From NCBI GenBank assembly GCA_021294815.2, contig CP095464.1, positions 600,001-632,000 of the forward strand: a stretch of 32,000 nucleotides of DNA, given 5' to 3'. Under the pieces are notes generated by a model, which saw only the letters and a list, made by a program, of their open reading frames with translations, ran no database searches and was not told the origin of the DNA. Source of the DNA: Verrucomicrobiota bacterium. Its GTDB lineage: Bacteria > Verrucomicrobiota > Verrucomicrobiia > Opitutales > LL51. Positions 7,386-25,663 of this stretch are shown piece by piece. Each line of letters starts with the position of its first letter. The first letter of the stretch is position 1. The translations under genes and the position numbers were made by a program.

Positions 7386-8270
7386 ATGTTTGGCCTCTTT
7401 TCAAAAGTCCGTACGGGCCTGGCGTCAACGAAAAATAAACTCGTCCAGCGGATTCAACACCTTTTTCGAGATAAAAACCTCGATACAACCGCCCTCGAAG
7501 CAGCGCTTTATGCAGCAGATCTAGGGGTTGAGACCGTTGAAAAGATTCTATCGTCGGTTCCTCACCGAGATCAAGATTTACGCGCCGTTGTTGAACCGAT
7601 TCTCCTCCAAACGATGGCCGGTTCAGAAGGTGATCCGCAAACGTTGTTGACTACATCTGAGCCCATGGTGATTGCGCTGATTGGTTCTAACGGCTCTGGA
7701 AAGACAACAACCGCGGCAAAGCTTGCGTATTATTTCGCTCAACAGGGGAAGTCAGTCATTGTTGGTGCGTGCGATACCTTTCGGGCAGCGGCGAATGAAC
7801 AGCTCAAACGTTGGGCCGAACAACTCCAATTTGATCTCGTTGAAAGCCATAAGGGAGCCGATCCGTCATCGGTCGCATTCGATACCTGTCAGGCGGCTTT
7901 GAGTCGTCATAAAGATATTGTAATTCTCGATACGGCCGGGCGTCTCCACAATAAAGCCAACCTCATGGCAGAGCTTCAAAAGCTCAAGCGTGCGATTGGG
8001 AAAGTCCATAATAGTTTTCCACAACATATCTGGAGCGTTATCGATGCGAGCCTCGGGAGTAATGCAATTGTTTCGACGGAAAAATTCCACGAGGCGATTG
8101 GATTAACCGGAACCGTCATTACAAAACTTGATGGTAGTAGCCGGGGCGGTACACTGGTAGGGATTTATCAAAAACTTGGCATACCGGTTTACTTTATCGG
8201 GCTTGGTGAGCGCTGTGAAGATCTAGAACCTTTCCGCGTAAATGATTATGTTACTGCACTCTTAGCGTAG
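7386..8270 (+). CDS. ftsY: Signal recognition particle receptor FtsY (short form, NG domain only)
   Basis: MFGLFSKVRTGLASTKNKL is a typical FtsY N-terminus. GTPase motifs GSNGSGKTTT, DTAGR, TKLDG and GLGE are present. The ORF-track start at 7269 would overlap gmhB by 117 nt, so the ATG at 7386 is preferred. Confidence 0.9.
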   Translation: MFGLFSKVRTGLASTKNKLVQRIQHLFRDKNLDTTALEAALYAADLGVETVEKILSSVPHRDQDLRAVVEPILLQTMAGSEGDPQTLLTTSEPMVIALIGSNGSGKTTTAAKLAYYFAQQGKSVIVGACDTFRAAANEQLKRWAEQLQFDLVESHKGADPSSVAFDTCQAALSRHKDIVILDTAGRLHNKANLMAELQKLKRAIGKVHNSFPQHIWSVIDASLGSNAIVSTEKFHEAIGLTGTVITKLDGSSRGGTLVGIYQKLGIPVYFIGLGERCEDLEPFRVNDYVTALLA

Positions 8271-16250: not shown

Positions 16251-16457
16251 ATGAGCAGTGTAGTTAAATGGGGGTTAATTTTGTTACTTTTATCTATTTC
16301 AGGTGGGTGTAGTTCCGAAAAAAATTCTTCGTCGCGTCTTCCGTGGGCTGTCCCAGCGAACTGGGAACTGCGCCGCAATATTACAGCCGATGTAAATGTC
16401 CAAAAGGTCTACAGACCGGCCGACTTCAACAAAACCAAGACAGGGAAGAAATTTTAA
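16251..16457 (+). CDS. Small putative lipoprotein (68 aa), first gene of the pilus/T2SS-like module
   Basis: A hydrophobic signal sequence (GLILLLLSISGGC) ends in a lipobox-like GGC and is followed by a Ser-rich linker. No homology recognised. It lies 30 nt upstream of the next ORF. Confidence 0.4.
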   Translation: MSSVVKWGLILLLLSISGGCSSEKNSSSRLPWAVPANWELRRNITADVNVQKVYRPADFNKTKTGKKF

Positions 16458-16487: not shown

Positions 16488-17747
16488 ATGGCTGCAGACT
16501 CTTTAGTTTTATGCATTGCTAACGAAGCGGTCAGTTTGTGTCATGTTGCGCATCACAAGGGATGTTGTCGTCTACAAGAGGTTCAAGTTACGAAATATGA
16601 CACGAAGCAGGAGCTTTCGGTGGCATTGGGAAATTTTTCTCCAAAAAAATTAAAAAAAGTCCGCGTCATTGTCGTTGCACTGCCTTGGGTGCGTTGCTTG
16701 CCGCTTGAGGTATTTTTTGCACGCGAGGAACATTTTTGGCAGAGCGCAGTTTTTGAATTAAAACAGACTCTGGGCGAGGATTTCTCGGCTTTTGAGATTG
16801 AGTTGTATCGCACCGATGGCCGTGTCAATGCCTTTCTATTCGAAAAGAAGAAACTCATTTTACTACGTGGAATCCTGGCGCAATTTGGGATTAAAAAAGC
16901 AAAATTTATTTCCTCTACTGCGGCGTTTCTCAACGAAATTCCGCACACTGAATCTCGCATATGTTGGAGTTCATTTATTGCAGATGAAATCGAGGCAACA
17001 TGTTTAGAACCGATTGAACCGTTGTTGCCAGCAATTTTTACGGCAGTGGCGTCGCATCGAAATACGGCAACATATCGTTCGATAAACGTTCAGGCAACAT
17101 CGCGTGGTTTTAAGCGATTTTTTCGACAAAAGGAATGTGTTGTCGGTGTGCTGTGCTTAATGGTGGGTTTATTATTTTGTGTCCAGCATTTGGGAGGTGT
17201 CGAGCGGGAATGGGATGAGCGAAAGCAAGAGCTCGTAGTTCATCGAGATCAGCTATCGAAACTCGCGCAGCAAATCGACCAGGCACAGCAAAGACTTCTG
17301 CAGAAACAGGATCTCTTGGGTGATGTTGTTGTTTATGATCAACAAAATCACGCCTGGAATGTGTTTTTTAGCCAATTGCAAACCATTTTGTTTCAAACCG
17401 GAGATGTATTTTTAACCGATTTTCAGTGGCGGGTTGCGATATCGCCTCAAGATGCGCCAACGAAGAACTCCTCAAAAAAGAGGCAACTCCGTGAGAAACC
17501 AGCCGTTAACGACAGTCTACTTGAAAAAGTTCCAGCCTCGATCGAGCTTGCGGGGGCGATATTTATCGAGAATTCCCAGGATTCCGGACATTGGAATGCG
17601 CCCATGAATCAGATGTTCGACGCGTTAAGGAAAATTGCCGAAGTCGATGACATTTGCGAAATTAAAGTAAACGCGCCTACGATGGGAAAAATCACATTTC
17701 GTTGCCGGCTGCGATTAAAGCCAGATGCGGAACTTCTTGCGATATGA
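16488..17747 (+). CDS. Bitopic inner-membrane protein with GspL-like / fused PilM-PilN-like architecture
   Basis: Cytoplasmic region of about 215 aa with a PilM/GspL-like pattern (VVALP...FE.KQ.....F..E......V.A.L..K..L......L..FG.K...F.S...AF). A basic patch RGFKRFFRQK precedes a single TM (aa 217-232, nt 17136-17183). A Gln-rich coiled coil (aa ~238-275) follows. The periplasmic alpha/beta domain has a PilN-like pattern (WNVFFSQLQ...VFLTDF...IELAGA...FRCRLRLK). Confidence 0.5.
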   Translation: MAADSLVLCIANEAVSLCHVAHHKGCCRLQEVQVTKYDTKQELSVALGNFSPKKLKKVRVIVVALPWVRCLPLEVFFAREEHFWQSAVFELKQTLGEDFSAFEIELYRTDGRVNAFLFEKKKLILLRGILAQFGIKKAKFISSTAAFLNEIPHTESRICWSSFIADEIEATCLEPIEPLLPAIFTAVASHRNTATYRSINVQATSRGFKRFFRQKECVVGVLCLMVGLLFCVQHLGGVEREWDERKQELVVHRDQLSKLAQQIDQAQQRLLQKQDLLGDVVVYDQQNHAWNVFFSQLQTILFQTGDVFLTDFQWRVAISPQDAPTKNSSKKRQLREKPAVNDSLLEKVPASIELAGAIFIENSQDSGHWNAPMNQMFDALRKIAEVDDICEIKVNAPTMGKITFRCRLRLKPDAELLAI

Positions 17748-19270
17748 ACCGATGCGTATCCAAGTATTGGAAATATGGGAGCTGGTTGGGAATTTTACTG
17801 TTCAACCTCGTGCTCGTTAGTCAAGTCGTACAGCGATCGATACAAATTTCCCAGAACCGTGAGCATTGCGCGGTGTTGACCTCGGAAATCCAACAATTGC
17901 GGCAACGACAGCCGCCGCCGACAGTGGAAAATTACCATCAGCTCCAACAAGAATTAGCACAGTGTGATCAAAAGTATGCCACAATTACGAGTAAAGTGCG
18001 AAAAATCGATTTGCCATTTCTGCCGCAATCGGAGGCGCCCAACGAAGTCGATTTCTATTTTCTGGTGATGGCTTACCGCCGATTCTTGGCGGAATGTGCC
18101 CAGAAGATGAGAGTTCTTATCCCCCAAAATTGTGCGTTTGGGTTTGAAGCGCACGCTACCAAAGAGGTTGTGCCACCCAAGGAAACTTTAGCGAAATTTA
18201 CCGAGCAATGCGCAATCGCGGCTAGAGTGTTGGTCTTGCTGTTTGGCGCTAACGATTACGGGATGGAGTTTCAAAAAATAACGCGTGAAACGTTAGCGGC
18301 AGAGGAAAACGAATCCAAAACACCAAAAGAAAAGAAGCAATTCCCGCGTTCCGAAAAGGTGAAGTCGTATCGTTTTACGCTCGAGTTTTCCAGTTATACA
18401 CGCGCCTTGCGGACATTTTTGAATCGTGTCTTGGAGTTTGGATTACCGGTGATTTGGCGCGAGATTACGATCCATGTGAATCCGACGGCGCATCCAGAGG
18501 CTGCCACTTCCGCGGATCCGGTAAGCGTAAAGCTGGTATTTGATTGGATTTTTCCGCGTCCTTACATCACAGAGTCTCAGGATTTAAATTGTACAGAGCT
18601 AAAGGCAGTACCTGAAGAAAGAGGAGAATTCTGGAGTGATCCTCCTCAGGCCCCCCGAGGTGAGGCATGGACATTTGACCTTTTTACTCCGCCAACGATT
18701 GTACTTAAAAATGACCATTATCAGGCGACATTGCCGTGGCTACCGCAACCTAAACCGGAAACAAGAGTTGTGTTTGCATGTACCGCTTTGGAGCGTCTAT
18801 TGTATCCAATTCAGCTTTTGGGTTACATAATTCCGCCCCCGGATGCATCTGGAGTATCGCGACCCCATTTCTTTTTAAAAAACGTGGAGACGCAGGAGAG
18901 TTTTCAGGCGACGTTAGGAGATACAGTAACGGCACATTCGCTTGAATTAGTGGATTTTAACGAGCGTGGCCCCGAAAATTGCCAGCAACTGAATCTTCTG
19001 GATCACGAGCTTTCACGCGAAGAAATTTTAACGCCGGAGACGAAATATGACACACAACGAGTCAAAGTAAACTTAGAGTACAGGGAAGAATTGATAGAAC
19101 CCGATGCAGACGCCCTAGAATCGGAAACGAAAACAGTTTCACTGACGCATATCGGCGAAAATTTTAAGATCGGTGACCGCCAGTACACGCTGACTTCCGT
19201 TGATGATGCGGTAAAACGTGTTACTTTAGAATGTGATGGGGAAATGATCGAGGTCGCACTAGAGAGTTAA
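17744..19270 (+). CDS. PilO-like / Amuc_1100-like membrane-anchored protein with a ~230 aa beta-rich C-terminal extension
   Basis: The ATG at 17744 overlaps the upstream stop (ATGA). It has an N-terminal TM (WLGILLFNLVLVSQVV) and a coiled coil (EIQQLRQRQ...LQQELAQ). Blocks FYFLVMAYRRFLAECAQKMRVLIPQNCAFGFE and YRFTLEFSSYTRALRTFLNRVLEFGLPVIWREITIHVN align by eye with my recollection of Akkermansia Amuc_1100. C-terminal segments (FDLFTPP, YPIQLLGYII..., FKIGDRQYTLTSVDDAVKRVTLE) are reminiscent of PilP / GspC-HR domains. Confidence 0.5.
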   Translation: MNRCVSKYWKYGSWLGILLFNLVLVSQVVQRSIQISQNREHCAVLTSEIQQLRQRQPPPTVENYHQLQQELAQCDQKYATITSKVRKIDLPFLPQSEAPNEVDFYFLVMAYRRFLAECAQKMRVLIPQNCAFGFEAHATKEVVPPKETLAKFTEQCAIAARVLVLLFGANDYGMEFQKITRETLAAEENESKTPKEKKQFPRSEKVKSYRFTLEFSSYTRALRTFLNRVLEFGLPVIWREITIHVNPTAHPEAATSADPVSVKLVFDWIFPRPYITESQDLNCTELKAVPEERGEFWSDPPQAPRGEAWTFDLFTPPTIVLKNDHYQATLPWLPQPKPETRVVFACTALERLLYPIQLLGYIIPPPDASGVSRPHFFLKNVETQESFQATLGDTVTAHSLELVDFNERGPENCQQLNLLDHELSREEILTPETKYDTQRVKVNLEYREELIEPDADALESETKTVSLTHIGENFKIGDRQYTLTSVDDAVKRVTLECDGEMIEVALES

Positions 19271-24538: not shown

Positions 24539-25663
24539 TTAACGGTTTTGCGCGGCTTCTCTTTCTTGCCAAATGGGACGGGCTTTTTGCTCAATCTCCG
24601 TGGCTATTTCTTCACCGCATTGCTCGCGTAGTAGGGCGAGTAATGCGTCGTACTTTTGAAGTTCGGCATGGTAAATGGCCAGTTTAATGCCATCCTCGAA
24701 AACAAGTTCTAACGCAAATTGCAGGCGAGCAACAGGATCCTTCCCGTTCGGATCCTGCAAAAGAATATTTCGGAGCGCATTAAAATCTGCAACAGGATCT
24801 TGGGAAGAACGAAGTTGTTTGAGTGCCGAGTTGTTTAAAATTCTGCGAGCGGCATGAAGACCGAGCAGCGATTTTAGAAAATCAAAATCTTGTTGAAATT
24901 CTGGTGAGGTTGGAGCATTTCGGTAAAGCAGGCTTTTGGCTTCCGTCACGCGTCCCGGAAAAGAAATTGCACGTACAGCGGCCTCAGCGGCAATTTCGTG
25001 GCCGAAAACGCTATTCATGCGATCCAATTTTTCATGGAATTCCGGCGATCGAAAGCCCTCATTGGTAGAAATTAAGCTGTGAGTGTAGTGCACGGCGATA
25101 ATGCCAGGCAGTGTATTCCACAAAATGTTATGGCCGAATAACTTCTGGATTTTTCGTAACTTTCGACGAAATTCGCGAAACGTTTTTCCTTCAATGAGAT
25201 CGCCATCCTGATCGATAATCTCTTGGGTATAAATTGCTAAAGCATCTTCTGCTGCCGAAATACCATTACTGGTGCTGTAGGCGACATTTTTCTCCTGAAT
25301 GGATTTGAAACTAAATTCGTTACCAGTAAGCTGTGGGTTCCGAAGGGTTTCCAGAAAATAGCGCTGTAAAACATGCCACATGACGAATTTATCGAGACGC
25401 ATCAAGTGCCAGTTGGGGATCGAACGTTCGGCATGTAGACAGGCATTGTGGAGCTCATCAGACTCAGGACCATATTGCCGGCATACCTCGAGGAGATAAC
25501 TCGTCCAGGTGCCTTCGCTGGTATTTCCATCCAGGCTATCGGGAAATGAATCTATCGCGACAAGCGGCGGCAGCTCGACCTCTGGAGGGGTTCCAGCGTG
25601 AACAGCGGAAACAGAAAAGAGTCCAATAGATAACGACAAAACAAGCTTTGAATAACCAACCAT
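24539..25663 (-). CDS. Hypothetical secreted, predominantly helical protein (374 aa)
   Basis: Clear signal peptide (LVLSLSIGLFSVSAVHA/GT) and an AGGAG element upstream of the ATG. No domain recognised. It is divergent from grpE-dnaJ. Confidence 0.6.
   Translation of the reverse strand: MVGYSKLVLSLSIGLFSVSAVHAGTPPEVELPPLVAIDSFPDSLDGNTSEGTWTSYLLEVCRQYGPESDELHNACLHAERSIPNWHLMRLDKFVMWHVLQRYFLETLRNPQLTGNEFSFKSIQEKNVAYSTSNGISAAEDALAIYTQEIIDQDGDLIEGKTFREFRRKLRKIQKLFGHNILWNTLPGIIAVHYTHSLISTNEGFRSPEFHEKLDRMNSVFGHEIAAEAAVRAISFPGRVTEAKSLLYRNAPTSPEFQQDFDFLKSLLGLHAARRILNNSALKQLRSSQDPVADFNALRNILLQDPNGKDPVARLQFALELVFEDGIKLAIYHAELQKYDALLALLREQCGEEIATEIEQKARPIWQEREAAQNR

Follow-up and report, generated by a model that had tools for sequence, protein, structure and literature searches.

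Gene organization of the locus

The fused gene described here lies on the forward strand of a 32 kb stretch of DNA (the window, which denotes the whole stretch analysed) and follows closely on two smaller genes. The relevant features are as follows.

16251–16457, + strand: small predicted lipoprotein of 68 residues with an ...SGGC lipobox, directly upstream of the 419-residue gene (conserved ORF)
16488–17747, + strand: upstream partner gene of 419 residues, a weak Amuc_1101-family relative (NCBIfam, hydropathy) with a 4 nt overlap onto the fused gene
17744–19270, + strand: fused gene of 508 residues, joining Amuc_1100-family (PilO-like) and Amuc_1099-family modules in one ORF (ORF and translation)
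17774–17842, + strand: N-terminal inner-membrane anchor, residues 11–33, the sole hydrophobic segment in a Kyte–Doolittle scan
17813–18553, + strand: Amuc_1100/PilO-like module, residues ~24–270 (NCBIfam, precomputed PF28028 match, Foldseek)
18554–18673, + strand: fusion junction and linker, residues 271–310, predicted to be disordered (low pLDDT)
18674–18694, + strand: FDLFTPP motif, residues 311–317, hallmark of the Amuc_1099-like family (alignment conservation)
18695–19267, + strand: all-β Amuc_1099-like region, residues 318–508 (AlphaFold, stand-alone homologues, hhalign/HMM)

The 508-residue protein at 17744–19270 that an earlier sequence-only reading had described is indeed encoded by an ORF with an ATG start codon, which overlaps the stop codon of the upstream gene as ATGA. 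The Kyte–Doolittle scan gave a maximum hydropathy of 0.5 across the junction (residues 255–330), where a second membrane helix is absent. In the AlphaFold model, the N-terminal module (N-module) consists of long helices (residues 2–83) followed by an α/β core, the linker has a pLDDT below 50 over residues 271–313, and the C-terminal module (C-module; residues ~306–508) is a confident all-β structure (pLDDT 83–93) that opens with W-x-FDLFTPP and comprises approximately eight strands at residues 340–450 and a five-strand C-terminal unit at residues 463–506. The alignments used for structure prediction were shallow, because a word-index homologue search gave only six relatives.

The N-module is an Amuc_1100-family protein

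The NCBIfam model NF038287 (Amuc_1100_fam) matches residues 24–253 of the fused protein (E = 1.7e-12, 47.4 bits, profile positions 24–255 of 326), a score below the equivalog cutoff of 180 bits that marks the protein as a significant homologue and not as an equivalog-level member. In the protein database, P0001 (the window protein), P0002, P0003 and P0006 all carry a precomputed Pfam match to PF28028 (Amuc_1100). A Foldseek search with the AlphaFold model placed Amuc_1100 crystal chains (6lad, 6laf and 6kny) at ranks 1–10 (E of 1e-5 to 2e-4, prob 1.0), with a TM-score to target of 0.54–0.60 and a query pLDDT of only 45–65 in the N-module; PilO followed (3jc8_Oa, E = 6e-3, prob 0.97; 2rjz_A, E = 0.11, prob 0.89). 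The Amuc_1100-like N-terminus proposed by the sequence-only reading is thus borne out over ~250 residues, and Amuc_1100 itself has 317 residues, in line with the length given there. Direct resemblance to the Akkermansia muciniphila sequence, which that reading had also claimed, is marginal: phmmer gave no match and hhalign with the N-module profile gave E = 0.08 over 93 columns, although the YRRFL...FGF block does align. Sequence searches of the PDB (phmmer and a three-sequence N-module profile) returned nothing at E ≤ 10, and no Pfam or NCBIfam PilO/GspM profile matched the fused protein at E ≤ 0.1. The PilO/GspM-type bitopic topology is nevertheless present, with an N-terminal membrane helix, helices, an α/β core and structural matches to PilO. 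Together, these results show that the N-module is an Amuc_1100-family, PilO/GspM-like protein.

The N-terminal membrane helix, long helices and α/β core are common to the N-module and A. muciniphila Amuc_1100 (PDB codes 6KNY, 6LAD and 6LAF), and both genes lie downstream of an Amuc_1101-like gene. Pairwise identity is only about 14–20%, which is marginal, and the Pro/Ala-rich insert of Amuc_1100 is missing from the window protein. The latter, in turn, carries an additional ~240 residues that Akkermansia encodes as a separate gene, Amuc_1099.

The C-module belongs to a family that includes Amuc_1099

Homologues of the C-module form at least 168 representative clusters at E ≤ 1e-3, nearly all of them stand-alone proteins of 260–320 residues, each with its own N-terminal membrane helix; they include P0004 (56% identity) and P0005 (38%). 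One long match (P0111, 413 residues) was discarded because it looks chimeric, with an ABC-transporter ATPase attached. In an alignment of 113 family members, Trp27, Phe44, Thr45, Pro46 and Pro47 (C-terminal numbering) are at least 90% conserved, and the FDLFTPP motif, which the sequence-only reading had picked out and which lies at residues 311–317 here, is found in every close relative and is nearly invariant across this large family.

Taken singly, residues 271–508, P0004 and P0005 matched neither NF042425 (Amuc_1099_fam) nor any other family at E ≤ 10, and a search of the PDB with a four-sequence C-module profile gave no informative match at E ≤ 10. A shallow C-module profile gave a weak hhalign match to Amuc_1099 (E = 0.0095), and it took the 113-sequence alignment (A7) to make this link convincing (93% probability, E = 3e-7, 98 columns). 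NF042425 was the one family matched by members of this set (12 of the 113, best E = 4.9e-5) and, in the reverse direction, the A7 HMM scored 28–36 bits on six Akkermansia Amuc_1099 sequences. The region linked by hhalign and the HMM is the C-terminal ~100 residues. The N-terminal YDKIL membrane helix of Amuc_1099 is also homologous to that of the stand-alone family members, and both are encoded between Amuc_1100-like and secretin genes. By eye, PFDIISGPPI of Amuc_1099 resembles FDLFTPPTI of the window protein. The Akkermansia protein is longer (337 residues), its middle region (DPDNDG...) does not align with the C-module family, and it is anchored and separate, whereas the module in the window has no anchor and is fused. 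The comparison with Amuc_1099 that the sequence-only reading had suggested thus identifies it as the counterpart of the C-module, and the profile matches show the latter to belong, as a remote homologue, to a family that includes Amuc_1099. A verrucomicrobial family of ~170 clusters with FDLFTPP as its hallmark, labelled so far as `hypothetical' in databases, is now defined.

Comparison with PilP and GspC

PilP/GspC homology-region (HR)-like segments had been proposed at residues 353–405 and 464–506, and these were not confirmed. None of the 113 family members matched the PilP or T2SS-C Pfam models at E ≤ 0.05; a PDB profile search with the family returned only titin and similar noise; a Foldseek search of the PDB with the whole C-module model (pLDDT ~90 in the core) had a best match of E = 0.035 with prob < 0.5, with PilP and GspC absent from the top 50; and hhalign against Pseudomonas aeruginosa PilP, the sequence of which was verified for residues 83–174, gave E = 0.042 over 25 columns. 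On these four tests, PilP/GspC homology of the C-module was rejected as unproven. In the Foldseek search with the whole module, no seven-stranded β-sandwich superimposable on PilP (2IVW, 2LC4) or GspC-HR was recognized. The Foldseek noise for this module was of β-propeller and eIF5A types.

Fusions of this general kind are not new. PilO–PilP fusions are known in canonical type IVa pilus systems, for example Q88CU9 of Pseudomonas putida, and have been taken as an argument for 1:1 stoichiometry (Korotkov et al., 2011; PMC3169554). The logic of the present fusion is the same as in these proteins and in GspM–GspC of the type II secretion system (T2SS): a PilO/GspM-like bitopic protein is combined with the component that precedes the secretin gene. 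GspC is anchored by a membrane helix, and so are the stand-alone members of the C-module family. Compared with the PilO–PilP systems, the C-module in the window has neither detectable PilP/GspC-HR homology nor a lipoprotein signal, PilM and PilN are also fused, in degenerate form, in the upstream protein, and a secretin gene is not adjacent. Of the earlier description as a `PilO–PilP-type fusion', the joining of two modules in one chain therefore stands and the PilP homology is not supported; the phrase is a fair functional analogy based on gene position and topology. Since PilP/GspC-HR similarity was detected neither in sequence nor in predicted structure, contact of the C-module with a secretin is suggested by gene position alone.

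Gene neighbourhood

The 419-residue upstream protein has a reduced PilM-like N-terminus, a membrane helix at residues 214–239, a coiled coil and a PilN-like C-terminal part. NCBIfam Amuc_1101_fam matches its residues 218–352 against profile positions 378–514 (E = 2e-4), and the same region is matched in the orthologues at loci L002 (6e-6) and L001 (3e-3) and also at L014 (9e-12), so that the designation `PilMN-like' rests on weak but consistent NCBIfam matches and on gene order. An hhalign comparison with Akkermansia Amuc_1101 was weak (E = 0.0036, 22 columns), no Pfam or NCBIfam match to a PilM (actin-like ATPase) signature was found in the protein, and a search of the PDB gave coiled-coil noise only. 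The small lipoprotein, for which a family search gave no match, has orthologues in the same position at L010 (69 residues) and L002, with an invariant Gly-Cys and LPWxxPxxWxLxRxIT in the alignment, and is possibly a third member of the cassette. The prepilin peptidase gene of the window lies at 685–1524.

The reading that we favour, and consider likely, is that the gene arose when two neighbours in the verrucomicrobial Amuc_1098–1102-type pilus-like (type IV pilus/T2SS-like) envelope machine fused in frame, and that its product is a single-pass inner-membrane protein. A possible but unlikely alternative is that the three-gene cassette (small lipoprotein, degenerate PilMN-like protein and Amuc_1100-like plus Amuc_1099-like protein) of this Opitutales/Puniceicoccales clade has ceased to work for a pilus or secretin and has been re-purposed or orphaned as a scaffold with another envelope role, for example as a trans-periplasmic tether or the organizer of another machine, with the C-module binding a non-secretin partner. 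As the sequence-only reading had remarked, no secretin gene follows the fused gene; none was found in the 32 kb window, nor were genes for a pilin, a PilB/T-type ATPase or PilC, and a secretin gene is likewise not adjacent to the cassette at L002, L003, L010, L001, L012 and L014 (genes downstream of the L014 cassette gave no informative Pfam match). The loss of the PilM signature, the lack of a PDB match for the C-module fold, continued purifying selection on the ORF (see below) and the conserved position of the cassette among housekeeping genes, between rbfA and thymidine phosphorylase/kdsA, are also compatible with re-purposing. Points that weigh against the favoured reading are the missing machine genes and housekeeping surroundings, the lost PilM signature, shorter length and weak Amuc_1101 link of the upstream protein, the lack of PilP/GspC-HR similarity in the C-module, the low model confidence and sub-cutoff NCBIfam score of the N-module, and the only moderate constraint on the ORF. 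Against re-purposing, distant relatives retain the full order, as at L013, where Amuc_1101_fam, Amuc_1100_fam, a C-module family gene (P0030) and an Amuc_1098_fam secretin gene follow one another; at L011 a fused gene directly precedes a secretin gene; and the window does encode a prepilin peptidase. Type IV pilus and T2SS genes are, moreover, often dispersed in genomes. A combined version, in which the Amuc_1099-like module would have a novel, non-PilP structure while taking the place of PilP/GspC in the gene order, and the cassette in this clade, surrounded by genes for translation and housekeeping, would in addition have parted from the pilus machine to form another kind of trans-envelope scaffold, appears rather improbable.

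Split relatives and history of the fusion

The suggestion that relatives might encode the two halves separately proved correct: they are two genes at L002, L001 and L003. (The Amuc_1100-like gene at L003 has 355 residues and a long tail of low complexity.) L002, the closest syntenic relative, matches the window in gene order throughout (RuvA, RuvX, NusA, IF2, RbfA, PilMN-like protein, Amuc_1100-like protein of 262 residues, 249-residue protein, thymidine phosphorylase, KdsA), and its two halves are overlapping genes. At the L002 junction, ...PGGVP and a stop codon overlap the next ATG (GTGATG), which is followed by the helix MSWISTILMIGTFVFCGIVVW; the stop, the ATG and the helix are all missing in frame from the window, with a loss of ~40 codons. 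The same fused architecture is found in an 88% identical protein from the Opitutales MAG GCA_029059345.1. The window and this second assembly are 91% identical at the nucleotide level, with an ungapped alignment of 481 codons that yields, for the two sequences, a dN/dS of 0.33 overall (0.37 in the N-module, 0.48 in the linker and 0.26 in the C-module). Purifying selection acts on the fused ORF, the overall value indicating moderate constraint only.

In a neighbour-joining tree, the window protein and P0002 are sister to the split P0004 (100 of 100 bootstraps), whereas two other fused proteins, P0010 (from the syntenic locus L010) and P0096, both of which match Amuc_1100_fam, are placed elsewhere. 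Fusion of Amuc_1100-like and Amuc_1099-like genes has thus arisen independently at least three times.

The cassette might instead be a decaying remnant on its way to pseudogenization, with the fusion a tolerated deletion of no functional meaning. The only moderately low dN/dS, the upstream protein being ~60 residues shorter than its L002 orthologue and the machine genes not being adjacent could be read in this way, but we regard it as very improbable: two genomes that differ at 9% of nucleotide positions both carry the open frame without interruption or gaps, and dN/dS stays under 1 in each module; what was deleted is just the superfluous anchor, with the frame preserved exactly; at least two other lineages arrived independently at the same outcome; and the C-module is predicted to fold with confidence. 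An assembly or gene-calling artefact, in which two genes were run together by a sequencing error or a chimeric join, is extremely improbable, since the same fused ORF occurs in independent assemblies (the window, NCBI GCA_029059345.1 and ENA ERZ14208469) and the difference is not one of a single base but of ~40 codons, the second membrane helix entirely among them, even though ~98% of the listed family clusters are separate genes and the long match P0111 does resemble a chimera.

Proposed arrangement and implications

The in-frame fusion removed the stop codon of the first gene together with the start codon and membrane anchor of the second; both modules therefore stay periplasmic on one anchor, connected by a flexible linker of ~40 residues. 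The fused gene is probably translationally coupled to the 419-residue gene, and its PilO-like part may pair with the PilN-like C-terminal half of the protein encoded there. PilP and GspC reach toward the secretin in canonical systems, and the Amuc_1099-like part may extend in the same way toward a secretin whose gene would lie at another site in the genome. Fusion would lock the two components into a 1:1 ratio and make a second anchor unnecessary.

A close homologue already carries the NCBI name `Amuc_1100 family pilus-like protein', and the fused gene is a real variant of a known Akkermansia-type pilus-like envelope system. Much work has addressed Amuc_1100 as a host-active `outer-membrane, pili-like' protein. 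What it does in the cell is poorly defined, and its neighbour Amuc_1099 is uncharacterized. Recurrent natural fusions in which the second anchor has been lost provide `Rosetta stone' evidence on both families and would point to a direct physical association of Amuc_1100-type and Amuc_1099-type proteins. By analogy with PilO–PilP and GspM–GspC, this suggests that the two act together in a 1:1 ratio as membrane-anchored periplasmic parts of a secretin-associated platform. For Akkermansia, it offers a testable hypothesis, namely that Amuc_1100 would contact Amuc_1099 and that Amuc_1099 would contact Amuc_1098.

Architecture of the fused protein

The features of the window referred to here are as follows.

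685-1524, +, prepilin peptidase gene (Peptidase_A24 and A24 N-terminal domain; family match)
16251-16457, +, predicted lipoprotein, 68 aa (conserved ORF directly before the 419-aa gene)
16488-17747, +, upstream partner, 419 aa (membrane helix aa 214-239, coiled coil)
17744-19270, +, fused gene, 508 aa, ATG start (ORF and translation)
18674-18694, +, FDLFTPP motif, aa 311-317 (translation)

The start codon of the fused gene overlaps the stop of the 419-aa ORF as ATGA. Its product has a single hydrophobic segment, which is N-terminal (aa 11-33); the junction has none and aa 271-313 are predicted to be disordered. The protein comprises one membrane anchor, a PilO-like module (N-module, aa ~24-270), a flexible linker and an Amuc_1099-like β module (C-module, aa ~306-508) that carries the FDLFTPP motif picked out in the sequence-only reading.

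A search of the fused protein against a local copy of Pfam-A gave no match. NCBIfam NF038287 ('Amuc_1100 family pilus-like protein') matched aa 24-253 with E=1.7e-12 and 47 bits, well under its naming cutoff of 180 bits. Precomputed PF28028 (Amuc_1100) matches exist in the protein database for the fused protein and its relatives, and NCBI gives an 88%-identical MAG protein the name 'Amuc_1100 family pilus-like protein'. The AlphaFold2 model of the whole protein has modest confidence in the N-module (pLDDT 45-65). A Foldseek search of the PDB, as the sequence-only reading had advised, ranked ten Amuc_1100 crystal chains first (E 1e-5 to 2e-4, prob 1.0, TM to target 0.54-0.60). PilO structures came next, one from the M. 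xanthus pilus machine (3jc8_Oa, E=6e-3) and one from P. aeruginosa (2rjz, E=0.11). The family matches and this ranking identify the N-module as a divergent PilO-like protein of the Amuc_1100 family. The likeness first seen by eye therefore holds for profiles and fold, whereas direct sequence similarity is marginal: hhalign against A. muciniphila Amuc_1100 (query identical to 6LAD/6KNY in the PDB over residues 31-317) gave E=0.08 over 93 columns, aligning the YRRFL...FGF block as had been proposed. Neither phmmer nor a small profile of the N-module found a match in the PDB.

Identity of the C-terminal module

Queried by itself, the segment aa 271-508 retrieved P0004 (249 aa, 56% identity) and P0005 (265 aa, 38%), stand-alone proteins that both have a hydrophobic helix at the N-terminus. 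A profile of the C-module, run exhaustively with HMMER against 1.84 billion representatives, matched 168 clusters (E<=1e-3). Almost all of these are 260-320 aa long, with the match beginning at about residue 50-60, after the membrane helix. Conservation of the W...FTPP motif in the 113-sequence alignment is 90% or higher and, where the sources name these proteins, they are 'hypothetical protein' entries from Puniceicoccales MAGs.

The gene order in Akkermansia reference loci is Amuc_1102, Amuc_1101 (612 aa, PilM plus an extension), Amuc_1100 (317 aa), Amuc_1099 (337 aa, N-terminal membrane helix) and Amuc_1098 (907 aa, TPR and secretin). Comparison of the 113-sequence family with Akkermansia Amuc_1099 using hhalign gave 93% probability and E=3e-7 over 98 columns (only E=0.0095 with a shallow profile). 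NCBIfam Amuc_1099_fam was matched by 12 of the 113 members, with no other family matched, and the family HMM scored 28-36 bits on six Akkermansia Amuc_1099 sequences, aligning the YDKIL N-terminal membrane helix and the last ~110 residues. In the homologous locus L013, the gene of family member P0030 has an Amuc_1100_fam gene on one side and an Amuc_1098_fam TPR-secretin on the other, with an Amuc_1101_fam/PilM gene upstream. On these grounds, the C-module is the counterpart of Amuc_1099.

Two PilP/GspC-HR-like segments had been proposed in this region; four tests for such similarity were negative. The C-module alone was modelled confidently as an all-β structure (pLDDT 87-93 in the core), and Foldseek against the PDB gave nothing significant (best E=0.035, prob <0.5, TM <0.2), with no PilP/GspC chain among the 50 hits listed; such structures are present in the PDB sequence copy. 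The PilP and T2SS-C Pfam models matched 0 of 113 family members, the family profile returned only noise from the PDB, and hhalign with P. aeruginosa PilP (query verified for residues 83-174) gave E=0.042 over 25 columns around the G-D motif. After these negative results, the PilP analogy is one of gene position and membrane topology.

Origin of the fusion

The two halves are separate genes in the homologous loci L001, L002 and L003, a comparison that the sequence-only reading had suggested. Gene order in L002 matches that of the window throughout (ABC ATPase, substrate-binding protein, RuvA, RuvX, NusA, IF-2, RbfA, a PilMN-like protein of 479 aa, an Amuc_1100-like protein of 262 aa, P0004, thymidine phosphorylase, KdsA), and its two module genes overlap stop to start as GTGATG. 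In the window, ...DWIFPRPY runs in frame into ...ITESQDLNCT..., without the stop codon, start codon and helix MSWISTILMIGTFVFCGIVVW of L002. The fused gene originated when the signals between the two genes and the second anchor were lost in frame.

Independent assemblies (NCBI GCA_029059345.1, ENA ERZ14208469) carry the same fused ORF; aligned by codon with that of the window, it shows no gap over 481 codons, 91% nucleotide identity and a dN/dS of 0.33 (N-module 0.37, linker 0.48, C-module 0.26). These data argue against a dead gene and exclude an assembly artefact; the fused ORF is under purifying selection.

Fusion of the two modules has recurred; of the 150 clusters listed, only three are fused. 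P0010 (539 aa) lies in L010, a locus syntenic with the window, and P0096 (457 aa, 5'-truncated) in L011, with a secretin gene directly 3'; both have Amuc_1100_fam N-modules. In a neighbour-joining tree of C-modules, the window protein and the 88%-identical P0002 are sister to the split P0004 in 100/100 bootstraps and never group with P0010, while P0096 is distant. At least three independent fusions are the parsimonious reading of these sequences.

In L011 (40-3242, JGI 3300045996), from a GC-rich lineage, the 610-aa secretin gene overlaps the independently fused gene by 4 nt; this locus would be the best natural system for studying contact between C-module and secretin. In L003 (529-1596), the Amuc_1100-like protein (355 aa in total) has a long, charged, low-complexity C-terminal tail followed by a separate Amuc_1099-like gene, and the region between the modules therefore appears to vary in evolution.

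Genomic context

The 419-aa protein weakly matches Amuc_1101_fam (E=2e-4) in the post-PilM part of the model, a region also matched in orthologues from L002 (6e-6), L001 (3e-3) and L014 (9e-12); hhalign with Akkermansia Amuc_1101 was likewise weak. Family searches found no PilM or FtsA signature in it, and the L002 orthologue is ~60 aa longer. The 419-aa protein appears to be a PilM-PilN-type fusion (M'N) with a degenerate PilM-like N-terminal part, in which case the platform would be built from two chains, both of them fusions: M'N and O-1099.

In the window and the syntenic loci L010 (8339-8548) and L002 (~7579-7758), the small predicted lipoprotein is encoded after rbfA and before the PilMN-like gene. 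It has a lipobox (...SGGC/LSGC), an invariant LPWxxPxxWxLxRxIT and no family match, and may be a third cassette component, such as a pilotin-like protein or a PilP-like lipid anchor.

The cassette is flanked 5' by RbfA, IF-2 and NusA and 3' by thymidine phosphorylase, KdsA, a dicarboxylate symporter, L31 and PGK. No secretin follows, as had been remarked, and the 32 kb contain no secretin, pilin or pilus ATPase gene. The prepilin peptidase gene implies processing of type IV pilin-like or pseudopilin proteins by the organism, although the window contains no further pilus or T2SS gene.

Between pgk and grpE lies a 374-aa ORF (24539-25663, -) without a Pfam or NCBIfam match; in L010 grpE directly follows pgk, so the ORF may be a lineage-specific insertion. 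In L014 (7104-14856, a Puniceicoccales MAG contig), same-strand genes of 522, 125, 336, 862, 318 and 198 aa, essentially without Pfam matches, lie 3' of a split Amuc_1100-like/Amuc_1099-like pair and may extend the system of that lineage with uncharacterised components.

Functional implications

Established knowledge of PilMNOPQ and GspL/M/C/D, together with gene order in complete verrucomicrobial clusters, suggests that the PilO-like part would pair with the PilN-like part of the upstream protein, that the Amuc_1099-like part would reach a secretin encoded elsewhere and that fusion would enforce 1:1 stoichiometry. Natural PilO-PilP fusions have already been noted (P. putida Q88CU9), with the same stoichiometric inference (Korotkov et al., 2011, PMC3169554). 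The protein would work like such a PilO-PilP (GspM-GspC) fusion, but by homology it joins Amuc_1100-family and Amuc_1099-family modules; of the PilO-PilP-type fusion first proposed, the joining of a PilO-like module to the next module stands, while tests for PilP membership were negative.

In Ottman et al. (2017, PMC5332112), Amuc_1099 appears simply as a hypothetical protein within the cluster Amuc_1098-1102. The sequence sources examined carry no annotation of the fused architecture or of the FDLFTPP family as Amuc_1099, and a literature search found no published description of either. The fusion is valuable mainly as Rosetta-stone evidence for joint action of Amuc_1100 and Amuc_1099 in a periplasmic platform associated with a secretin.
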